Shown one piece after another: positions 899-14,539 of a DNA stretch of 64,000 nt. The position numbers and the translations under genes were made by a program. The notes beneath the pieces were generated by a model, which worked only from the letters and a program-made list of their open reading frames with translations, did no database searches and was not told the origin of the DNA. The stretch is from NCBI GenBank assembly GCA_963779415.1, contig CAVZYA010000002.1, positions 960,001 to 1,024,000 of the forward strand, given 5' to 3'. Source of the DNA: an uncultured Acidobacteriota bacterium (lineage in GTDB: Bacteria; Acidobacteriota; Thermoanaerobaculia; UBA5066). The number at the start of each line of letters is the position of its first letter. The stretch's first letter is position 1.

Positions 899-2773
899 TC
901 ACCACGTGACCCGGACGCCGAGAGCGACGGTCCGGCCGGGAAGCGGGACGCCCGGGGCTCCCTCGTAGAGCGTGTCCGTCAGGTTCCGCCCCTCGACGTA
1001 GATCTCGGCGATCTCGCCCTGCAGGAGGTCGCGGCCGAGCCGGACGTCCCAGAGCCAGACACCGGCCGCGTAAGAGGGGCGGGCGAAGTACGAAACGCGG
1101 GTGAGCGCGTCGATCGCGAGCGGGAGCGTGCCGCCGAGAATGAGGTCCCACTTCACGTGGAGCGGGTCGAGGACGTACTTCCCTTCCGTGGCGCCCCCGG
1201 CGGCCTCCGAGAGCGCCGAAAGATCCGTGAAGAGGTACGACGCCGCGAGCGACGCGCGCGAGAGGAGCACCCCTTTCCGGCCGTGCCACGCCGCCGTCGC
1301 CTCGACGCCGCTCGTGTCGGCCGTCCGGACGTTCTCCGCGACCCACGGGACGCCCGGAGAGGAGCGGACGAAATCGATCATGTTCGTCCCGTGGCGGTGG
1401 AAGCCGACGAGGTCGAGCGCCCATCCCCCCTCGGCCCAGCCGATCCCCGCCTCGACGTTCGTCGCGCTCTCCGTCGAGAGGGACGGATTGCCCTGGTTCT
1501 GCGGATCGCGGTAGTAAAGCTCCGTGTAGGTCGGGACCCGGAAGGCCGTCCCGGCGGAAGCGCGGAGGGTGAGACGGGGAAGGAGGGCGAAGTAGACACC
1601 GGCGTGCGGCGTAAAGCGGGACCCGAAGTCGCTGGTGTCGTCGCCGCGAAGCCCGATCCGGAATCCCCCCGCCGCGGGAGCGTCCCCGTCGAACGGGCGT
1701 CCCATCTCGAGAAAGACCGCCCCGTGCCGGCGGGAGTGCGATCCGAGAACCGTCGAATCGACGGAGTCTCCCCCCGCCTCGATGCCGGCGACGACTGTCC
1801 CTCCGAGAAACGCGTGCCGCGCCCAGAGCCGCCCCAGAACGAGGCTCGTGTCGGAGAGGTTCTCGTAGAGGGAGGGGCTCGACCGATCGAGGACGAAGTC
1901 GTCGTGGTGCCCACGCCACGAGACGGAAGGGGTCAGCGTCCATCCGCCGAGCGAGAGCGTCGCCGCCGCGGCGGCGGTACGGACCTCCGTCGTCTCCTGC
2001 TGGTTCGGCGGGGCCGTTCCGTAGAAGGAATACGCCCCGTACCCGCGGCGGGCGTAGCCGAATGAAGCCGAGAGCGGGCCGCTCCCCGTCTCCCAGCGGG
2101 CCGAGCCGCGGAGGACGTCCTCCGCCTGATCCGTGTCGTCGCGGAAGCCGGACGACTCCGACCGGAACCAGTCCGCGGCGAGGGCGACGGCGTCTCCGAT
2201 CTTCGAGGCGAGACGGAGCCCCCCCGCGGCCAGCGAGTCCGAGCCGACGGCGAGACGGCCGTCGAGCTGCGCGCGGGCGCGCCCCAGATTCCCTCCGCGG
2301 GTGACGATGTTCACGACGCCCCCGACGGCGTCGGCTCCCCAGACCGCCGACCCCGCGCTGTAGAGGATCTCGATCCGCTCGACGCCGTCGAGAGGAACGT
2401 CGAGGTCCGCCGCACCGTGGATCGACTGCGGGTCGTTCATCGGCTCGCCGTCCACGAGGATCAGCGTCCCGCTCGCGTCGGTGCCGCGAAGCCCGATGTC
2501 GGCCGGTGTGCCGCCGGCTCCGCGGCGGCGGACGTCGACGCCGGCCACCCACTGGAGAACGTCGGCGACGGAGCGGCCGGGAAAGTGCTCGATCTCGGCG
2601 CGCGAGACGACACGGACGGTGGCGGAGGGATCGGCGATCCCGAGCCGCGTCGCGACGGCCCGGATCCCGGCGTCGGGCTTCTTCGGCGGCTCGTCCTCCG
2701 GCGCGGGCTCCTGCCCCCGCGCCGCCCGAGCGACGGCCGCGAAAAGGAAGAGAAGAAGAGCCCTCCGCGGCAT
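899..2773 (-). CDS. TonB-dependent receptor (BtuB-like, ~624 aa)
   Basis: C-terminal part of ORF 899..3505 from MPRRALLLFLF (signal peptide); plug motifs LILVDGEPMND and VERIEILYSAGSAVWGADAVGGVVNIVT; barrel AFRVPTYTELY, GNPSL; C-terminal aromatic residue (GVRVTW). Confidence 0.9.
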   Translation of the reverse strand: MPRRALLLFLFAAVARAARGQEPAPEDEPPKKPDAGIRAVATRLGIADPSATVRVVSRAEIEHFPGRSVADVLQWVAGVDVRRRGAGGTPADIGLRGTDASGTLILVDGEPMNDPQSIHGAADLDVPLDGVERIEILYSAGSAVWGADAVGGVVNIVTRGGNLGRARAQLDGRLAVGSDSLAAGGLRLASKIGDAVALAADWFRSESSGFRDDTDQAEDVLRGSARWETGSGPLSASFGYARRGYGAYSFYGTAPPNQQETTEVRTAAAAATLSLGGWTLTPSVSWRGHHDDFVLDRSSPSLYENLSDTSLVLGRLWARHAFLGGTVVAGIEAGGDSVDSTVLGSHSRRHGAVFLEMGRPFDGDAPAAGGFRIGLRGDDTSDFGSRFTPHAGVYFALLPRLTLRASAGTAFRVPTYTELYYRDPQNQGNPSLSTESATNVEAGIGWAEGGWALDLVGFHRHGTNMIDFVRSSPGVPWVAENVRTADTSGVEATAAWHGRKGVLLSRASLAASYLFTDLSALSEAAGGATEGKYVLDPLHVKWDLILGGTLPLAIDALTRVSYFARPSYAAGVWLWDVRLGRDLLQGEIAEIYVEGRNLTDTLYEGAPGVPLPGRTVALGVRVTW

Positions 2774-2805
2774 CTGGGGCGAGGATAACGAATCGGCCGG
2801 GGCGC

Positions 2806-3564
2806 TCAGGCGGCGCGCCGGGAGCGGGTCTCGCGCTTGGGGCCGGAAATCGCCAACGTCAGGACGAAGCCCGCATCCTCGCGCCAGAAACCGGCGAGCG
2901 GGCGATCGCCCCCCGGAACTCCCGGGGAGACGAGCGCCTCGAACCCCTTCCAGCCTCCGCCGTCGGGACGGGGGAGGCCGGGGAGGCCGGTGGCTTCGCT
3001 CTCCGACAGAATGATTCCGACCGAGAGGGTGTCGACGGCGAGGCCGACGCGAAGCGCCTTCAGGACGGCTTCCTTCGCGCTCCAGACGGCCGTGGCGAAG
3101 ATGTCGCGATCGCCGCCCGGAGAGAGCGCCCCCCACGCGTCGATCTCGTGGGGCCTGAAGAAGTCGCGGACGAACCCGGCTTCGCGGGGGGCGATCCGCT
3201 CGAGGTCGGCGCCGGCGGAGAGTCCGTCTCCCGTTTCGGCCCACGCGGCCGAGAACGCCATCCCCTCGGAGTGACTGATCGACACGCCGACGGGAAGCTT
3301 TCCGCCATCGGCAAGGCGGACGACCGGCGCTCCCGAAACCTCGGCCACGATGTCGAAGGCGTCGAGGGGAAGCTCCATCCGGACGAGGTCGGAAAGGAGG
3401 CGCGCGACGAGCGTCTTCGCCGCCAGGCGCCCGAGAAGCCAGTCGGCTCGCCGTTTCGGGATCCGAAGGGCCGCGAGCCTCTGCCGCTCGGCGGGCCCGA
3501 GCCATCCGGGCGTCCCCGCGGGAGGGACGGGAAGGCTCGCAAGGAGCGACCAGTGAATCGTCAC
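2806..3564 (-). CDS. Sfp-type 4'-phosphopantetheinyl transferase
   Basis: End of ORF 2806..5829; motifs [36 protein letters not shown]; GTG start overlaps the PKS stop (GTGA at 3561-3564). Confidence 0.9.
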
Positions 3565-6500
3565 AGGGTGACCGTCCCTTCGAGAGGTACGGTCCGGTAG
3601 CCCAGAAGCTCGACGAAGACGTTCCCGGCCTCGTCCACGACGCGCCCGTCGAACGACGCGCCGCCGTCGAGGGCCGTCACGACGGCCCAGAGCCGCTTCG
3701 ACTTCGCGTCTTCCTCGTCGCCGAAAACCCGGACGGACGCGAGGGCGGCGGGAAGAGCGAGGCGCTTCTTCGCTCCGACCTCCCAGATCCCGGCCGTCTG
3801 GAAGCAGAGCTCGATGAGCCGCGGCGCGACGAGCGCGGCGGCGTTCGGCGGCTCGGCGTTCGGCGGAAGGTCCTTCGCGAGGAGGCCCCACGCAGTTTCG
3901 CCGTCGACGAGGACCCCCTCGAGGACGCGATAGGCCGGACCGTGGAAGTAGACGCGGTAGACCGCCTCGCGGCCGATCGGGAGAGGGTTCTGTGTGGATG
4001 GAGGCTTCTTCGAGATCTTCGGCATCTGCCGGATCGCCTTCGTCATCAGGACCCGCGCGCGGAAGTGGAGACGGACGACGGGGGGAAGGTCCGGCTTCGG
4101 CTGCGTGACGGAGGAGAGCGTCGCCGTGACGAAGAGGTCGCTGCCGGCCCCGGCCGGGGCTGCCTTCGCCGCGAGATGGAGAGTCGACGGAAGCATCCGG
4201 AAGAACTTGAAGGGACGGACGAACTCTTCTTCCTCTACGGCCGCCACGCCGAAGCCCGGGCAGAGAACGCTCGCGATCTCGGCGAACGTCTCGGTCCCCA
4301 TGACGCCCGGAAGGAGCGGCGTTCCCTCCATCGAATGATCGAAGAGGAAAGGCTGCACCTTCGGGTCGAGGGGAGTCTCCGCGAGCAGGCCATCGTGAAG
4401 GCGCGCCGCGAGGAGGCGGCCGACGGTGACGAAGGGGCGGTCGCGCCGGGCGAGGCGGGCGTTCGCCTTCGCGGCGTCGAGGCCCCCCTCCGTATCCCAC
4501 TCGGCGCCGAGGACGCCGAGCCGACCGGCCACGACGATCTCGCCCGAGAAGGCCGAAGCGACGAGCTCCCGGCGGACCGTCGGGATTCCCGCCTCGGGCG
4601 GAAGCATGTCGATCCCGGCCGCCTCCATGATCTTCGGGATCGAGCCGCGCGTCGCCATCCCGATGCCGCCCCAGGCGGTCCAGTCGATCGCGATCGCGCG
4701 CGTCTCGGGGCGGTGCTTCCGGAGCCACGACGAGATCGAGCAGAGAAGCGCGTTGGCCGCGCTGTAGTCGGTCTGGCCGTCGTTCCCGAAGCGCCCCGCG
4801 ACCGAGCTGAAGACGACGGTCGCCCCGAGCGGCATCCCCTCGGCGGCGCGAAGGAGGGAGAAGAAGCCGTCGGCCTTGATGTCGAAGACGACGTCGAACT
4901 CCGTCGGCTCCTTGTCGGCGAGCTTGCGGGAGATCTCGACCCCTCCGGCGTGGACGAGGACGTCGATCCTCCCGTGCCGGGCGCGGATCTCGGAGACGAC
5001 GGCCTCGAGGGCGGCGCCGTCGAGGAGGTTCGCGCTTCGCCAGACGGCGGTCCCTCCGGAGTTCTCGACCGCCGAGATCGCACGAAGTGCGGCGTCCGAT
5101 CGCTCGATGCCGAGGATCGTCCGGTCGATGACGGCGGGCGTCGGCTTCTCGCCGCGCCGCTTCGCTTCTTCGATGAGCGCTCTCTTCAGGGCTTCCCGGT
5201 CGGTTCGGAAGAGGGCGATCTTCGGGTCGTCGCGTCGCGGCTCCGGAACGAGATCGAGAAGCCAGAACGTGCCGCCCGAGGCGGCGGCGAGGTCGGCCAC
5301 GATGGCGCTCGTGATCCCTCCGGCCGCGCCCGTAACGACGAAGACGGACTCCTTCCCGAGGGTGAGCCCGGGCGTCCCGTCGCGGGCGGGACGCTCCTCG
5401 AGGCTCACCGTCCAGCGAAGGCCATCCTTCCGTCCGGCCTCGACGACGCCGGGATCGGCGAGCGTCTCTTCGAGAAGCGCCTCGGTCACGTCCGCGGCAT
5501 TCGCTCTTTCTTCGACGTCGACGACTTTCACGAGCGCCCCGGGGCGCTCGCGCTTGTATGCCTTGGTGAAGCCGGCCACGGCGCCGCCGAGCGGGGCCGT
5601 GGCGCCCTCCGCCCCTTCCCCGAAAAGGCCCCCCATTCGCGTCGCGGAGACGAGGAAGGTACCGGGCGAGGCGACCGCGTCGTAGAGGACGCGCATCGCC
5701 GCGTGGAGGCTCTTCGTCCGGCGGCGGTTCGCGTCGCGGAAGGCGGCGAGATCGAGGGTGAGGAGCGAAGGCTCGACATCGAGGGCGGGGAGCCAGTAGA
5801 CGCCGTGGACCGGCCCTTCGGTGAGCCATCTCCGAAGCCGGGCCTCGAGGGCGGCGGCCGGACCGTCCGCGAGGACGAGGACGGCGACGCCCCTCTTCTC
5901 GAGCCGCGTCTTCAGCTCTTCCGCGACCCCCCCTTCGTCGGGGGCGACGACGACGCGGCTTCCCGCTCCGAGCGCCACGCCGGTCGACTTCATCAGGTCG
6001 ATCGGGGGCCGGAGCGACGGGACGGCCACGCGCCTCGGGACGCGGTCGGCGTCTTCGAGCGTGGCCGGTAAGGCTTTCGCAGGTGCGATCAGCACCTTTT
6101 CTTCGAGGGGGAGAGGGGGAGGCGCAGAAGCAGAGCCGGTTGGCGGCAGCGCACCGGCGATGATCTCTGCCTTTTCGCTTTCGACGCTCGCACGCGCCGA
6201 AGGCGCGGGCGCGAGTTCCGGCCGGTGGGTATAGACGAACTGGACGACATGGCGGAGCGTGGGGAAGTCGCGGAGCTTGAGGCTCTCCTGTCTCGGGATG
6301 TTCCAGGTCTCGCGCACGGCGGCGAAGGTCTCGGCCTGCTTGACCGTGTCGACGCCGAGGTCGGCCTCGAGGTCGAGGTCCAGCTCGAGCATCTCGGGGG
6401 GTAGCCGGTCTTCTCGGCCACGATGGCGAGGACCTTCGTCACCACATCGTCTGATGCCGGTAAGGCAGCCGCGGGGGCAAGGAGCACCTTTTCTTCGAGG

Positions 6501-9500
6501 GAAAGAGAGGAGACGGGCCGTGGCTGTTGCAGTGCCGAAGGCGCGGGTGCGAGCTCGGGGCGGTGGTCGTAGACGAACTTCACGACGTGCCGGAGGGTCG
6601 GGAAGTCGCGGAGCTTGAGGCTCTCCTGTCTCGGGATGTTCCAGGCCTCGCGGACGGCGGCGAAAGTCTCGGCCTGCTTGACGGTGTCGACGCCGAGGTC
6701 GGCCTCGAGGTCGAGGTCCAGCTCGAGCATCTCGGGCGGATAGCCGGTCTTCTCGGCCACGATGGCGAGGACCTTCGTCACGACCTCGTCCGACCCGCTG
6801 ACCGCTGCGGGGGAGGCCTGCGCAGAGGCAACCAACACCTTCTCTTCGAGGGGGAGAGAGGCGAGCCGGAGCGGCCGACGGCGCGGGCGCGCGTCGTCTC
6901 TCCCGTCTCCCCGCCCGGGGCGCGGCGAGCGGGAGACGTCCCCCACTTCCAGCGGCTCGGAGCGGGGGAGCGGGCCGGCGCGCCCTTCGACGCGATCCGG
7001 AGATTCCGTTTCACGACCTCGAGCTCGGGGGCGTCCTCGCCCGTGATCTCGGCCAGCCAGCGCCCGTAAAGCGCCTTGTCGTCGACACGGTCGAGCGGGC
7101 CGGGGACCCGGCGCGTGAACGTGAGGGAGATCTGCGAGCCGAAGCCGGCGGCGAGGTGGATCGCGTAGGTCGACGGGGTACCGCCCGCCGCGCGAGAGGT
7201 TCAGGAGGCCGAGGTCGGGGTCGACCTCGCGGAAGTTCGGGACGGGGGGAACGATTCCGTGCTCGAGGATCTTCACGGCGATGACGTCCTCGATCCCGAC
7301 TCCCATCGGGTGGCCGGTGAACCCCTTCGTGTTCGCGACGACGATCTCGCTCGCCCCGGGCCCGAAGACGCTGCCGAAGGGCGGCGACCTCGGCGGAGGC
7401 GCTCCCGCCGCGGGCCGGCGTGAAGGTCTCGTGCGACATGAAGACGGTCTCGCGGAGCGATCGAGCGCCGGTCGATCCCGAAGCGGCGCTCGGCGGAGGA
7501 GACGAGGCTCTCGACGACCTGCGCGATGTGCTCCACGTCGAGGCGCGTCCCGTGGAAGGCGCTGTTCCGCGTCTCGGTGGAGAGAAGCTCCACGATGCCG
7601 CGCATCCCGCGCTCCTCGACCGCGTCCTGGCTCTCGACGACGAGGGCGCACGCCCCCATCCCGATCGAGGGTCCCGTGGCGGCGGCGGTCGAAGGGGAGG
7701 GCCGCCTCCTCGACCTTGTCGTCCGTCGCCGCGGCGCCGGTCGCGAGGAAGCCGGCGCCGATCCACGGGAAGAGATTCGTCGCCCGATGACGTTGTCGGC
7801 GCCGATGACGAGGACGCGGCGGCAGCGGCCCACGCGGATCCAGTCCTCGGCCAGCGCGATCGCCTGGGCCGTCGAGGCGCAGGCGGCGTTGACCTGGGTG
7901 TTGGGGCCGCGCGCGCCGACGTACTCGGCGAACTGGCTGTGCCCCATGGAGAGGATCCGGAAGCAGGAAGCGCCGGTCGAAGCGTACGGGTTCTGCGCGA
8001 GCTCGTCGTCGAGCAGGCCGATCCGCCGGCGGATCTCCGCGATCGTCGCGGCGTCGCGCGTCGTCCGGAGAAGATCCTCGAGCGTCGCCTTCTCCTTCCG
8101 GCCGCGCCTCGTACGGCGTGGAAGCGGGACATCTCGTCGGCGAAGCGGTCGTAGCCGGGGAAGGCGCTCGCGAAGATGACGCCCGTCTCGTCGCGGAGCG
8201 GCTCCGGGAGCAGCCACCGGTCGGGGAGGAACCTCCCCGTCGTCGTCTTCTTCCAGGTCTGGACGAGCGGGATGCCCGCCTCGCGCAGGGCGTCGAGGCC
8301 GGCGGCGATGGCGAGCTGCGTCGTCATGTCGAGCGCCTCCGACGAGCTTCTCGGGGACGCCGTACTCCGCGGCGAGGTCGAAGGCGCCGGGGCGCGCCGC
8401 GAGCTTGATGACGTCGTCGGTGTCTCGATCGTCTCGAAGCGGCCGCTCCCGTCCTCTCCCTTCACGACGCGCGTGACCTTCCGGTCGCGGCATGGCGCTC
8501 GCGGAAACGCTCGGGAAGGAGGGCGACGAACTGCTCGCCGCCGAGGATCCGCGCGGCGTTCTCCGGGTCCATGACCGGCTTGTCGGCCCCGGGAAGGCCG
8601 AGGCCGGTGCCGCTGATGACGATCGAGCCCGCGGGGACCTCGTTGCGGTCGAGAGCGCCGCGGGGGCCGGCGTCGAGCTGCCGGAGGGTCTCGGAGAGCA
8701 GCGCCTTCAGCTCGGCGATCGGCGGCCGAGGAGCCGACGGCGGGGGCCGAGGCGTGCGAGACCGTCGCGAGAGCCGGGACGATCTTCTCCGCCGGACGGC
8801 CATGTCCCGCGGCCCAGAGGCCGCAGAGGGCGTGGGAGAACGTCGGGACGTCGCCGGGCTTCGGCGCGTTCGTGAAGAGCGAGACGAGGCCGTCGCGTCC
8901 TTCGAGGACGTCGTCGACGAACCCTTTCAGCGCGCGCTTCGGCCCGACCTCGACGAACGTCCGGGCCCCTTCGGCCCAGAGCGTCTCGAGTCCCTTGACC
9001 CACTGGACGGGGGAGGCGATCTGCCGCTGGAGGATCTCCTTGATCTCGCCGGGCGTCGTCCGGGTAGAGGTCCCCCGTCACGTTGGCGACGACGGCGAGG
9101 CGCGGCGGCGAGACGCGAGAGGCGGTCGAGCACCTTGCGGAGCGGCCCGCTCGCGGGAGCGACGATCTCCGTGTGGAAGGCGTGGCTGACCGGAAGGCGC
9201 ATGACGTGGTAGCCGCGCTTCTGAAGCGCCTCGACGGCGGCCTCGACGGCGGCCGGGCTCGCCGCCGATGACGCACTGGGCCCGGCTGTTGATGTTCGCG
9301 GCGACGACGTAGCCGTCGATCGTCCGGAGGACCGCTTCGACCACCTCGACGGAGGCCATGACGGCGGCCATCTCGCCGTTGTCGGCGAGGGAGACGTGCG
9401 TCATCTCGCGCCCGCGCGCGGCGGCGGCCTCGAGGGCATCGGCGAAGGGCATCACCCCGGCGGCGACGAGCGCGCCGTACTCGCCGAGCGAGTGGCCCAT

Positions 9501-11594
9501 CACCATCTCGGGCTCGAAGCCGTAGACTCGCGAGCGAGCTCGACAGAGCGCGATGTCGGCCGTCAGCATCGCGGGCTGCGTGATGGCCGTCTGCTTGAGA
9601 GCCTCCTCGGCCTCCCGGAGCGCCTCGGGGTCCTTGGCGTCGACGAAGACGAGCGACGTGAGCGACCGGCCGAGGATCGGCGTCGATGACGCGGTCGGCC
9701 TCGTCGAAGACCGCCCGGGCCTCCGGGAGCCGCGAGGCGAGGTCGCGCCCCATGTTCACGTACTGGCTCCCCTGCCCGGGGAAGAGGAAGGCGAGCTTTC
9801 CGGCGGCGGGGCCGCTGCCGCGGAAGATCCCCTGCGACGCGAGGGCCGTGAGGGCCTTCGGCGCTTCCGGCCTCGAGCGCCTTCTGCGTCTTTCCCAGCT
9901 TCTCGAGAAGCTCCTCGCCGATCCGAAGTCGATCGACGAGCCGCTCGCGCGCGGCAAGGACGTCTGCCCCGGGGCGCGCGGCGGGGGGAACGAACCCTTC
10001 CTTCACCCGCGCCATGAGGGCGTCGAGATCGCGCCCGAGGGCTGCCGGAGAGTCCGCGCCGAGGGCCGCGACGCCGCGGAGGGGGGTCTTCTCGGGTCGT
10101 CTCGCCTCCGGGGCGACGGCGGCGGGAACGGACGAGGGAACGGAAACGGCGACCTGGTCGCGTCCTTTCGACGTCAGCATCCCCGGAACGTGCTCCTCGA
10201 GGACGAGGTGGAAGTTCGTCCCGCCGAAACCGTAGGCCGAGACGCCGCAGCGCCGGGGCGTCCCGTTCTTCGTCTTCCAGTCGCGAGAGCTCGTGGGCGA
10301 GGCGGAAGGGGCTCGTCTCGAAATCGATGTTCGGGTTCGGCGTCCCGGCGTTCAGCGTGGGCGGGAGCTTCTTCTCGTGGACGGCATAGACCGCCTTGAG
10401 GAGGCCGGCCGCGCCGGCCGCCGCCTTCAGGTGGCCGACGTTGCTCTTGGCCGAGCCGAGCGCGATCGATCCGCGCGGGGCGCCCCCGAAGACCGACGCG
10501 AGGCTCTCCACCTCCACGACGTCGCCGACCTTCGTGCTCGTCCCGTGCGCCTCGATGAGGCGTGCAGGTGGCCGGGTCGAGCCCGGCGTCGCGCCAGGCC
10601 CGCTCGACCGCGAGCTGCTGCCCGGCCGGGTTCGGCGCCGTGATCCCTTTCCCTTGCCGTCGCTCGACGCCGCCGATGCCGCGCAGAACGCCGTAGATCC
10701 GGTCGCCGTCCCGCTCGGCGTCGGCGAGGCGCTTCAGCAGGAAAGCCGCGCACCCTTCGCCCATGACGAAGCCGTCGGCGCCGTCGCCGAAGGGGCGCGT
10801 CCCGGTGGCCGAGAGCGCGCCGATCTTGCAGAACTTCACGAAGGTCGAGGGGCCCATGTTCCGGTCGACGCCGCCCGTGAGAACGGCGTCGCAGTGCCCG
10901 CCGGCGAGGAGGTCCATCGCCGCGTCGACGGCCGCGAAGGTGGAGGCGCAGGCCGCGTCGGTGATGAAGTTCGGACCGCGGAGGTTCAGGACGTTCGCGA
11001 CGCGTCCGGAGATGATGTTCGGCAGCTCGCCCGGCATCGAGTCCTCGGTGATGGGGGGGAGCATCGCCGACACCTTCTCGTGCCAGCGCGGCGAGGATCG
11101 CCTTCGCGGACGCTCGCGGGAAGTGTCGAGAACTCCGTCACTCCTTCCAGTGCCTTGCGCCAGCTCGGGGAAGAAGACGCGGTGCGCCGTGAGGTAGTGA
11201 AGCTCGCCCCCCATCGCCGTCCCGAGGACGACTCCCGTCCGCTCGGTGTCGAGCGGACGATTCGGCCAGCCGTAGTCGGCGAGCGCCTCGGCGGCGATCG
11301 TCACCGCCCACTGCTGTCCCTCGTCCATCGCCGAGGCGACCTTCGGCGGGATGTGAAACCGCTTCCAGTCGAAGGTGAAGCCGCGGACCCAGCCGCCGAT
11401 CTTGCTGTACGTCTTGTCGGGGGCCGCCGGGTCGGGGTCCAGAAGTCGGCCGGGTTCCAGCGCTCGGGCGAGACCTCCGAGATGCAATACCGCTTCTCGC
11501 GGATGTTCTTCCAGAAGGCGGGGGCGTTCGGGGCGTCGGGGAGGATGGCTCCGATCCCCACGATCGCGGCGGCGCGGCTCTGGCGTTCGCTCAT
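3561..11594 (-). CDS. Type I PKS/FAS, KS-AT-KS-ACP-ACP-KR-DH (~2,680 aa), split by multiple frameshifts
   Basis: Stitched from ORFs 11301..11777, 10174..11487, 9756..10517, 9563..10180, 8707..9957, 9078..9569, 8927..9202, 8462..8803, 7011..8465, 7273..8493, 6089..7651 and 3561..6392. KS1 [20 protein letters not shown]; AT FPGQGSQ/GHSLGEY/VSHAFH; KS2 NAACAST/MSHETFT/TKGFTGH; two ACPs; [29 protein letters not shown]; [14 protein letters not shown]. Confidence 0.9.
6225..6790 (-). repeat. Tandem near-identical ACP-domain repeats inside the PKS
   Basis: Two ~220-bp copies encoding [46 protein letters not shown](A/T)[21 protein letters not shown](K/Q)FVY(D/T)HRPELAPAP at ~6570-6790 and ~6225-6450. 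Confidence 0.9.
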
Positions 11595-11613
11595 GGCTTC
11601 TTCAATTCTCCGG

Positions 11614-13239
11614 TCATCCGGCGGGGAACGCCCGGGCGAGTTCCCGGGCGAGGAAATCCTCGTCCTCGATCCGTCCCGCCTGCGCCGCGAAGGCGCTGTC
11701 GAGGGCGAGGCTCTGCGCGAGGGCCGCGTCGGTCTGGCCGGCGGCGTTCGCCCACTTGAGGCCGTCGGACGCCACACGGACGAGCGCCTCGCGGGCGTGG
11801 ACCCGTGCCATCGCGGCGAGGACGGGGGCGCCGAGGGAGAGAACGGTCGACGGCTTCGACGCGGCGCGCTCGGAGAAGATCGCCGCGGTCTCGGCCCACG
11901 CCGTCAGCTCCCCGAGACGGAAGAGGACGTGCTGGTTCCGCGTGAGGCGGTCCAGGCGGCACCGCTCGAAGAGGGCGGCGAGGGAGCGGAGCGCCTGCGC
12001 CGCGAATGGCGCGCCCGTCTCGGCGCTGTCCGCCAAGACGCGCCGCCCAGTCGAGATACCAGGTCCCCCTGGTCTTCAGGTGGTGCTGCCACCGGTCGCG
12101 GGCGATCGTCCACTCCATGATCTCCGAGGTTCCTTCGTAGATCGTCGTGATCCTGACGTCGCGCTTGATCTTCTCGACCAGGTACTCGCGCGTGTAGCCG
12201 TACCCGCCGAGCGCCTGGATCGAGTCTTCGGCGGCCGGTTGCCGGCTTCCGTCGCCGCGTACTTCGCGACGGCCCCCTCGGTCGCGAGGTCCGGCTCGCC
12301 GCCGTCGATCCGCTCGGCCGTCCACTCGATGTAGGCGCGCGCCGCCTCCAGCCGGACGGCGTTCGGAACGATGAGCTTGTGGGTGTACCCCTGCTTCTGC
12401 GAGAGGGGGGCTCCCCCCTGGACGCGGGTCTGCGAGTAGCGGATCGCCCGCTCGAGTGCGGCCCAGCCGGCCCCGAGGCCGAACGCCGCGACCATCAGGC
12501 GCGTGTAGCCGAAGACGGCCTGCGCCTGCGCGAGCCCCTTCCCCTCGATTCCCCCCACGAGCCGCTCGGCCGGGACCACGACGTCCTCGAGGAACAGTGC
12601 CGCCGTGTTGCTCGCCCGGATGCCGTGCTTGTCCTCCGGCTTGCCGTGCGAGAAGCCGGGGAGCCCCTTCTCGACGACGAACCACGAGGGGCCGCCGGGG
12701 GCGTTCGCGAGGATCGTGTAGATGTCCGCGACGCCGCCGTTCGAGATCCACTGCTTCCGGCCGGAGATCCGGTAGGCCGTCGTCTTCCCGCCTTCGGCGA
12801 CCGGCACCGCCGTCGTCTGGAGGGCCGCGAGGTCGCTCCCCGCCTGCGGCTCGGTCGCCCCGTAAGCCATCAGGAGCCCCTCGTCCGCGAGGCGCCCCAT
12901 CCAATGCGCCTTCTGATCCGGCGTCGCACCGACGAGAATCGGGTCGGCCCCGAGGCAGGTCGCGAGGACGCCGGTCGCGATGCCGAGGTCGATTCCGGAC
13001 ATCACCTCGCAGACGCGGTAGATGTCCCAGGCGCTTCCGCCGAGACCGCCGCTCTCCTCCGGGACGAAGAGAAGGTGGATGCCGATCTGCTGCGGGTCGT
13101 AGAGGTCCTTCAGGACCTTCTCGGGGAAGACGTCCTCGTGGTCCAGCTTCAGGAGGACCTCGGGAGTCAGCTCGCGCGCCGCGTACTCCTTCAGCGTCGC
13201 GAGGAGCATCTCCAGAGTTTCATTGTCGAGACGTGCCAT
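11614..13239 (-). CDS. Acyl-CoA dehydrogenase family protein with C-terminal extension (~540 aa; frameshifts near 12235 and 12035)
   Basis: ORF 12076..13239 has [31 protein letters not shown]; continues in ORF 11591..12904 ([34 protein letters not shown]) and ORF 11614..12036. Confidence 0.9.
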
Positions 13240-13301: not shown

Positions 13302-13328
13302 AGTGCAGATGCACTTGATTCAACTGCA
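13302..13328. promoter_or_regulatory. Palindromic candidate operator in the divergent region upstream of the PKS operon
   Basis: AGTGCA-GA-TGCACT (13302-13315) overlapping imperfect TGCA-CTTGATTCAAC-TGCA (13310-13328) in an AT-rich patch; -10-like TAGAGT on the minus strand at ~13272-13277. Confidence 0.35.
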
Positions 13329-13404
13329 TGGGGGGCCTCGAGATGCCGTCCCCTGCGACCCCGTCTCACGGAACGGGGTACGATCCCCGTCCCACGGGCT
13401 CTCC

Positions 13405-14539
13405 ATGGATACGCTGACCCACGGACTCGCCGGCGCCCTGATCGCGAGAGGTTTTCCCGGCACGGGCGACGCGGACCTCGATGCGCGCCTCGGGCGCCGG
13501 GAGGCGATCGTCGGGTTTCTCTCGGCCATCCTCCCGGACGCGGACGCCCTTCCGAATCCGCTCTCGGCCGAGTTCTACATCGAGCACCACCGGCATCTCT
13601 CTCACTCGTTCGTCCTCCTTCCTCTCTGGGCCGTGGCCCTCGGCCTCCTCTTTTCGCTCCGGCTTCCCCTCCCCGAGGGGGGCGTCGGCGCGGCGGCCCG
13701 GCGAACCGCCCGAATCCGCCTCGTCCTCGTCTCGGCGCTCGGCCTGGCCTCGCACATCCTCCTCGACTGGGTCACGTCGTGGGGGACGCGGTTTCTGGCG
13801 CCGCTCTCCGAGCGGGCCTTCGCGCTCGACTGGCTCTTCATCGTGGATCTCTTCCTCTCCGGGCTCCTCCTCGTGGGCGTCGCCGGAGCGTTGCTCTTCC
13901 TTCGCAGCCGGAGCCGCGCCGTGGCTCGTGTCTCGCTCGCGACGGCGGCGCTCTACGTCGGCTTCTGCGGCGTGATGCACGGCCGGGCGCTGGCCGTCGC
14001 GAAGGGGCTCGCGCCGGAGGCACCGGTCTCGTGCCGCGATCCCGCAGCCGCTTCTTCCGACGCGCTGGCTCCTCCTTTCGGAGACGGGACACGAAGTTCG
14101 GGCGGACTTCGTCGATCTCCTCGCCCGGGCTCCGGCGGGGCCGCCTCCCTCCCGGGAGGCTCTCGCCGCCTTTCACGCCTCGCGGGAGCCGCTTCTGCCG
14201 CTCCTGAAGCGACTGGGGGCTTTCTACCGGCCGGCCGACGACCCCGCCCCGTATTTCCTCGAAGGGGAGGGGAAGTTCGCCGAGCGCGGCCTGGCGGATG
14301 CGGAAGCCTCCGTCTTCGGCCGCTTCGCCCGTTTCCCGGTGGCGCGCGCCGAGAAAGCCGGGGACGGAAGCGTCGTCGTCACGGTCCGCGACGCACGTTT
14401 CGCCCATCTCGCGGACGGGTTCGACCCGTTCGCCTACGTTCTCCGGTACGGGCCGGACGGGCGGCTCGCCGCTTCGGGCTTTACCTCTCCCCGCTGGATG
14501 AAGCCGCCGGGATCGCACGGCCTCGGCCTGGCGCGGTAG
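13405..14539 (+). CDS. Inner-membrane metal-dependent hydrolase (YdjM/DUF457-like), frameshift near 14030
   Basis: MDTLTHGLAGALI, LPDAD, HRHLSHS, SHILLDWVTSWGT motifs; after the shift reads AAIPQPLLPTRW and continues into ORF 14339..14539. Confidence 0.8.

Follow-up and report, generated by a model that had tools for sequence, protein, structure and literature searches.

Threonine at the phosphopantetheine position in the tandem carrier domains of a Type R-like polyketide synthase family, and its linked Sfp-type transferase

The stretch of DNA analysed here, referred to below as the window, is 64 kb long, has a G+C content of ~70% across its length and comes from an uncultured Acidobacteriota bacterium (contig CAVZYA010000002.1 of assembly GCA_963779415.1). 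Its minus strand encodes an iterative type I polyketide synthase (PKS) with a tandem pair of domains of the acyl carrier protein (ACP) kind, ACP1 and ACP2, which share one motif reading and have threonine in place of the serine expected to carry the 4'-phosphopantetheine arm. In both domains the threonine sits where the serine should be, and it does not vary within a large clade of related synthases that spans several phyla; the gene for a 4'-phosphopantetheinyl transferase (PPTase) is syntenic with, or fused to, that of the synthase. We infer from this that the threonine is actually modified, and that the downstream PPTase is the enzyme responsible; that it is the attachment site of the arm, served by a cognate PPTase, is the reading that we favour, with confidence somewhat better than even. 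To our knowledge, serine holds the cofactor arm in every acyl carrier protein that has been studied. Attachment to serine is treated as universal for the carriers of fatty acid, polyketide and nonribosomal peptide synthesis, the PROSITE site pattern requires it, and both domain-annotation rules and the Ser-to-Ala and Ser-to-Thr changes used as inactivating controls rest on the same rule.

The synthase and the transferase are laid out as follows, with positions counted from the first nucleotide of the window.

3561-11594, minus strand: PfaA-like iterative type I PKS with the order ketosynthase (KS), acyltransferase (AT), KS, ACP, ACP, ketoreductase (KR), dehydratase (DH), predicted to be a 'Type R' secondary-lipid synthase (ungapped tblastn with the homolog P0002; Pfam and NCBIfam domains; architecture in PMC3098273)
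10200-11594, minus strand: KS1, limits approximate (DAACAS, HGTST and GHLKAAAG once the frame pieces are read; fabF match at P0002 residues 186-467)
8900-9800, minus strand: AT, limits approximate (GHSLGEY in translation; fabD match at P0002 residues 598-891)
7070-8490, minus strand: second KS-like domain, termed 'CLF' by Shulse and Allen, limits approximate (active-site Cys retained in NAACASTAQ; family consensus)
6551-6799, minus strand: ACP1, an 83-residue domain with Thr39 at the Ser position (Pfam, alignment to solved ACPs, model)
6683-6685, minus strand: ACC, the Thr codon of ACP1, where the phosphopantetheine Ser is canonically found (translation)
6213-6460, minus strand: ACP2, a tandem copy nearly identical to ACP1, its N-terminal part out of frame with the remainder in the assembly
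6345-6347, minus strand: Thr codon ACG of ACP2 (translation)
6395-6401, minus strand: 1-nt deletion (frameshift) within ACP2, in a C run, GGCTACCCCCCGAGATG against GGCTATCCGCCCGAGATG in ACP1
4668-5342, minus strand: KR (Pfam KR, 76.4 bits)
3579-4397, minus strand: PKS-type DH (PS-DH, 46 bits; PKS_DH_N, 22.2 bits, below the cut-off of 27)
2806-3564, minus strand: Sfp-type PPTase, 252 residues (Pfam ACPS; GxDxE at G118, D120 and E122, and WSxKE at W161-E165)

An initial annotation of this DNA had reported threonine in both carrier domains under distinct codons, and this is confirmed, with ACC at 6685 to 6683 and ACG at 6347 to 6345. In phmmer alignments the threonine falls on the phosphopantetheine serine, that of the D-S pair, of solved carriers, namely PigH ACP1 and ACP2, the Streptomyces coelicolor fatty acid synthase ACP (2koo/2cnr) and NDUFAB1. 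ACP1 scores 23.1 bits against the Pfam PP-binding family (PF00550; cut-off 20.8), and an AlphaFold model of the domain, built from 45 family sequences (predicted local distance difference test, pLDDT, 88.7), has helices at residues 3-18, 39-52 and 69-79, with Thr39 as the first residue of helix II. The model matches solved ACPs with template modelling (TM) scores of 0.8-0.9 in Foldseek, as expected for the four-helix ACP fold. Where a PP-binding domain should have serine after aspartate at the N-terminus of helix II, however, both domains, and the whole clade with them, have threonine.

How widely the threonine is shared can be judged from three surveys of relatives. A search with the ACP2-KR-DH part, in which 8000 candidates were scored, recovered 2689 related proteins at E <= 0.001; in all of the 120 full-length homologs listed from these there are one to eight tandem ACPs, every motif of which reads LEADLG[VI]DTVKQAE, and the source names among them include Thermoanaerobaculia, Vicinamibacteria, Roseiflexus, Kouleothrix, Oscillochloris, Chloroploca, Caldilineaceae and Leptospiraceae. 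With ACP1 as the sole query, HMMER run exhaustively reached 6066 cluster representatives at E <= 0.001, and the 604 ACP domains aligned from the best 150 of these comprise 412 with DT, 178 with DS, 10 that are gapped and 4 others, the DS domains being of the PfaA types DLGIDSIKRVEI and DLGIDSIKKAQL. The T and S states need only 3 changes on a phylogeny of 274 ACP domains made with FastTree (225 T and 49 S; non-identical domains, at most two per protein, with the trait column removed). The flanking residues also differ between the two kinds of domain: Val occupies +1 in 97% of DT domains, where 99% of DS domains have Ile, and at +3 the DT domains have Gln (100%), against Arg or Lys in 95% of the DS domains. 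Finally, a scan of one genome per species gave at least 599 matching stretches, 533 of them encoding a relative, from which 80 loci were kept, mostly from Acidobacteriota and Chloroflexota, with single ones from metagenome-assembled genomes (MAGs) labelled Leptospiraceae, Verrucomicrobiia, Rhodothermales and Acidithiobacillales. Threonine is present in 239 of the 239 ACP motifs of these loci, a count biased toward DT for a reason given below, and is encoded by all four of its codons (ACG 119, ACC 92, ACA 15, ACT 13); serine is one base away from the threonine codons, yet is absent from the 239 motifs.

The tabulation of DT against DS in homologs is thus uniform for threonine, whether taken from the listed homologs, the aligned DT domains or the kept loci, and the possibility raised in the initial annotation, that homologs would mostly have serine, fails; the invariance goes well beyond what chance would give. 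The DT domains have no alternative conserved serine or cysteine, since no other column exceeds 23% Ser or 4% Cys, and no second candidate for the attachment site was thus found among them. Rare non-Thr domains do occur within otherwise DT proteins (P0202, P0152, P0247 and P0156), mostly as divergent copies; ACP1 of P0202 reads DLGVDSIKQAE, and the last ACP of P0156 reads DLGIDAVKQ. At the locus whose record is labelled as an Acidithiobacillales MAG (L002), the PKS is 75% and the PPTase 71% identical to those of the window. To judge by these identities its contig may be mis-binned, because it is as near to the window as is the locus from a Thermoanaerobaculia MAG (L001).

The second partner in the favoured reading is the PPTase. 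The initial annotation described it as Sfp-type and translationally coupled to the PKS, and both descriptions stand: the protein matches Pfam ACPS with 46.8 bits over residues 118-186 (cut-off 25), and its GTG start (3564) overlaps the TGA stop of the PKS (3563-3561) as GTGA. The N-terminal half-domain, 4PPT_N, is placed at residues 28-106 with 23.1 bits, below the cut-off of 27, and the 252 residues and two half-domains agree with the size (~230-250 residues) and domain make-up of Sfp-type (group II) enzymes. Residues G118, D120, E122, W161, S162, K164 and E165 are invariant in 44 members of the PPTase family; they belong to GxDxE, the Mg/CoA-binding motif (CoA, coenzyme A), and to W-S/T-x-K-E, the catalytic motif. 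Against the named equivalogs HetI, AcpT and AcpS all NCBIfam scores are far under the cut-off (for HetI, 24 against 370), and a sequence comparison with the PDB gave no significant match (best E = 0.18).

The link between the two genes is conserved well beyond the window. Among the 77 evaluable loci (the 80 kept, minus 3 that could not be evaluated), 49 have a PPTase homolog that begins no more than 300 nt after the PKS, 8 have one at a distance of 301-1300 nt and 7 at 1300-6000 nt; in 57 of 77, therefore, it lies no more than 1.3 kb downstream, and the window's own PPTase is likewise directly downstream. In five genomes without an adjacent copy, a homolog was found elsewhere in four (36-39% identity), one of these just past the examined flank. 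In 12 of the best 150 representatives the PPTase is fused to the C-terminus of the synthase, and all 12 are of the DT type, one having the order enoyl reductase (ER), KS, AT, four ACPs, KR, DH, PPTase. Co-occurrence of DT synthases with this PPTase clade, which the initial annotation had proposed to examine, is therefore seen in most loci. The genome that contains the window (4.36 Mb, 3 contigs) has three PPTases, two of AcpS type and the window's as the one of Sfp type; it also has three other ACP-like proteins, all DS, and no further ACP gene was found within the 64-kb window.

In Terriglobia loci a 1877-residue, eukaryote-like multidomain acetyl-CoA carboxylase is encoded between the PKS and the PPTase (L061:9973-15606), with biotin carboxylase, BCCP, ACC_central and carboxyltransferase domains; its position suggests a dedicated supply of malonyl-CoA.

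A structural prediction of the two partners together, a check named in the initial annotation, also comes out in favour of their association. The co-fold of the PPTase with CoA, Mg and the ACP passes with an ipSAE of 0.82, compared with 0.00 for the best control, against a mark that 58 of 80 solved complexes attain, as do 2 of 110 mismatched pairs. Its runs share at least 89% of contacts, partner pLDDT is at least 84, and the catalytic E165 contacts Thr39 while E122 contacts D38 and V40. What the model represents is a predicted canonical docking mode, not modification of the threonine, because PPTase-carrier complexes have already been solved and the result is a likeness to these.

Under the reading that we favour, the tandem carrier domains would accept the 4'-phosphopantetheine arm on threonine instead of serine, the downstream Sfp-type PPTase would transfer the arm from CoA to the hydroxyl of the threonine that opens helix II, the D-T-V-K-Q signature would be matched to the PPTase, and the tandem Thr-ACPs would work as the carriers of PfaA do. 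A wider claim, to which we give about an even chance, is that O-(4'-phosphopantetheinyl)-threonine is the obligate linkage of the whole tandem-ACP clade, put in place by a co-evolved PPTase of the Sfp type for which no AcpS-type enzyme can stand in; the clade counts hundreds of Acidobacteriota and Chloroflexota species, along with members that bear the labels Leptospiraceae, Verrucomicrobiia and Rhodothermales. Why would threonine be retained? We can offer only speculation: it might insulate the carriers from other PPTases and hydrolases, or its phosphodiester might be more resistant to beta-elimination.

Several observations weigh against this reading. The Escherichia coli AcpP mutant S36T also has threonine at the phosphopantetheine position, and in the available text of the report on it (PMC3340395) it is neither modifiable by 4'-phosphopantetheine nor functional with AcpS, implying that threonine is a poor acceptor, at least for AcpS, and that a specialised enzyme or ACP surface would be needed. 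That mutant is engineered, whereas here the threonine is natural, invariant and paired with an Sfp-type enzyme. The catalytic motifs of the PPTase nevertheless look canonical, with no distinctive residue found that would explain acceptance of threonine. In 13 of the 77 evaluable loci there is no PPTase homolog within 6 kb of flank, and one of the five genomes mentioned above gave none with the window's PPTase as query. The count of 239 out of 239 threonines is biased toward DT in that the pattern DTVKQAE[TM] served in part to retrieve the 80 loci. The co-fold, for its part, used its own alignments and a riding ligand, unlike the calibration, and its pass may reflect likeness to the solved PPTase-carrier complexes.

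Four other explanations have to be set beside the favoured reading. The one that survives best, although we consider it unlikely, is that the DT domains are never phosphopantetheinylated and are structural or docking pseudo-carriers, the acyl chains being borne by CoA or by some other ACP instead. Other systems do contain ACP-like domains that lack a working site, and the E. coli S36T protein is unmodified. A dead site should drift, however, yet the threonine is invariant over 412 domains and uses all four codons, and the ACP copy number of one to eight resembles that of polyunsaturated fatty acid (PUFA) synthases, in which more ACPs raise throughput according to the available text of Shulse and Allen (PMC3098273). 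Nor is there an obvious substitute carrier, since the search for a trans ACP in the cluster found none in the window and the genome has only the three other ACP-like genes, and it is with DT synthases specifically that the PPTase is found in synteny or fusion. The suggestion in the initial annotation that scaffold ACPs might act alongside a trans carrier is weakened by the same two facts, the lack of another ACP gene in the window and the retention of a single invariant residue.

It is also possible, but distinctly doubtful in our view, that threonine is merely tolerated, any Sfp-type PPTase modifying Thr or Ser alike, and that the DT state was frozen by accident in a single clade and reflects no dedicated pairing. 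The canonical PPTase motifs would fit this, as would the rare serine domains in DT proteins (ACP1 of P0202, with others in P0152 and P0247). Serine is one mutation away but almost absent from hundreds of domains across several phyla, however, and the +1 and +3 residues co-vary with the threonine. This explanation would still imply a threonine-linked arm, and departs from the favoured reading only in specificity.

We give little credence to a third explanation, that the threonine bears a different modification (another CoA-derived prosthetic group, or phosphate), added by the neighbouring or by another enzyme. Other carrier systems do use other prosthetic groups, citrate lyase ACP being an example, and the PPTase is remote from solved ones, as its best PDB match indicates. 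Yet the neighbouring enzyme belongs to the PPTase fold families, with GxDxE and WSxKE invariant, and no other conserved modifying enzyme was found in the loci that were inspected, their neighbouring genes encoding acyl-CoA dehydrogenase, acetyl-CoA carboxylase, endonuclease V and unannotated open reading frames.

The state of the gene in this assembly raises a last alternative. The initial annotation regarded the KS, AT, KR and DH motifs as intact, which holds at the level of the motifs; as a gene the synthase changes frame about 20 times over this part of its length, once inside ACP2. In ungapped tblastn with P0002, an intact homolog that is 84% identical, there are 20 frame switches between 11594 and 6395 and none in 6401-3564. 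A phase trace of G+C at third codon positions confines the frame changes to ~6.4-12.3 kb, that is, to two-thirds of the PKS on its 5' side and the 3' terminus of the dehydrogenase gene upstream of it, and shows only ordinary gene-boundary phase changes in the remainder of the 64 kb. Contigs of relatives that are 88-99% alike, from four metagenome runs in three studies, differ from the window by single-base indels that coincide with 7 of the 20 switch points; indels at these points make up 10 of the 12 rows listed out of 62, and contigs from 3 of the 4 runs have an extra base at the ACP2 deletion. These contigs are the relatives', not from the window's own sample, and the parts that they leave uncovered carry no meaning; among the metagenome runs screened for the window's own reads, none had more than 0.13 of the sampled words. 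A further protein, P0003, matches the window at 99.6% identity over 736 residues; in it both ACP1 and ACP2 lie in a single frame, although it has breaks of its own elsewhere. The frameshifts are therefore probably assembly errors in a poorly polished stretch of a long-read assembly of 3 contigs, and not the mark of a pseudogene.

That the threonine itself is a sequencing error, or the lineage-specific decay of a dying gene, which the ~20 frameshifts might suggest, has a negligible chance of being right and is refuted by the presence of the same threonine in every homolog, under all four codons, and further by the restriction of the frame changes to one stretch, the single-nucleotide indels in the relatives' contigs, the unbroken reading of both ACPs in P0003, and the identity of the frame pieces to P0002 (~73-100%, most 80-95%), which is not below that of the unbroken 3' third (80-86%).

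The closest described system is the 'Type R' secondary-lipid cluster, in which a PPTase gene comes after one pfaA homolog with the order KS-MAT-CLF-ACP(3-6)-KR (Shulse and Allen 2011, PLoS One, PMC3098273). In the available text of that paper, Type R clusters are reported from Acidobacteria (Koribacter, Solibacter), Elusimicrobium and Roseiflexus, their product being uncharacterised, and Roseiflexus castenholzii, Koribacter, Solibacter and Elusimicrobium are named as cultured hosts; neither 'threonine' nor 'serine' occurs in its main text. By its sequence architecture the window locus is a Type R synthase: it encodes KS-MAT-CLF-ACPn-KR on one protein, the window copy being frameshifted and the relatives P0002 and P0004 intact with the same architecture, and the homologs found here come from the same phyla as the reported hosts. 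It differs in that it has two ACPs, that a DH can be recognised and that cysteine is retained in its second KS. The cysteine, in NAACASTAQ, is kept in an alignment of 15 family members, and the domain named 'CLF' in 2011 may be a true second ketosynthase. The DT synthases P0171 and P0207 have an N-terminal NMO/PfaD-like enoyl reductase, P0171 with a C-terminal PPTase fusion as well, implying that the Thr-ACP clade covers more architectures than Type R.

The synthase also resembles PfaA, the PUFA synthase served by the PPTase PfaE. The nearest relatives of its ACPs are the tandem DLGIDSIKRVEI domains, KS, AT, tandem ACPs, KR and DH are again on one polypeptide, and the NCBIfam PfaA model is the best match. 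In contrast, PfaA has Ser with Ile at +1 and Arg or Lys at +3, and lacks a second KS between AT and the ACPs; P0002 scores 869.1 bits, below the cut-off of 1010.1 for NCBIfam TIGR02813. No pfaB-, pfaC- or pfaD-like genes turned up in the loci inspected. A third likeness is to the enediyne-type iterative polyene PKS system RerA-RerB, described in the available text of PMC11563203 (Chem Commun 2024), which shares KS-AT-ACP-ACP-KR-DH without ER and has a PPTase directly downstream; the C-terminal PPTase fusion of some DT synthases is a further resemblance. RerB has a Y domain and a thioesterase in that account, whereas the window has an extra KS and no thioesterase was found in it.

Three other genes surround the pair in the window.

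11600-13239, minus strand: acyl-CoA dehydrogenase-family gene, immediately upstream of the PKS, in two pieces owing to a frameshift near 12240
899-2791, minus strand: TonB-dependent receptor, downstream of the PPTase on the same strand
13303-14200, plus strand: YdjM-family membrane protein, divergent, upstream of the dehydrogenase

An acyl-CoA dehydrogenase-family gene also lies directly 5' of the PKS in a Leptospiraceae locus (L033:12-929) and an Acidobacteriaceae locus (L061:178-909). Since the PKS has no ER domain, the dehydrogenase could be a trans enoyl reductase or a desaturase of the pathway.

The gene family is known, and the threonine feature appears to be unreported. No report of a threonine phosphopantetheine site, of a DTVKQ-type motif or of a follow-up to Type R was found in full-text literature searches, a scope that puts most subscription journals and supplements outside. 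A bioRxiv paper on the DSL motif and PMC11744666 mention threonine at other positions only, and a JACS Au paper of 2026 has conserved serine in its own PUFA-like ACPs.

If the favoured reading is right, this family would provide the first exception to the serine rule of phosphopantetheinylation and would extend PPTase chemistry to a secondary alcohol. Motif-based counts of 'active' ACPs would then miss or mis-score the DT family, and the carrier and its PPTase would constitute a natural orthogonal pair, of use for labelling and pathway engineering. The threonine also offers a handle on the Type R synthases, which are common in soil Acidobacteriota and Chloroflexota and whose product has been unknown since 2011.

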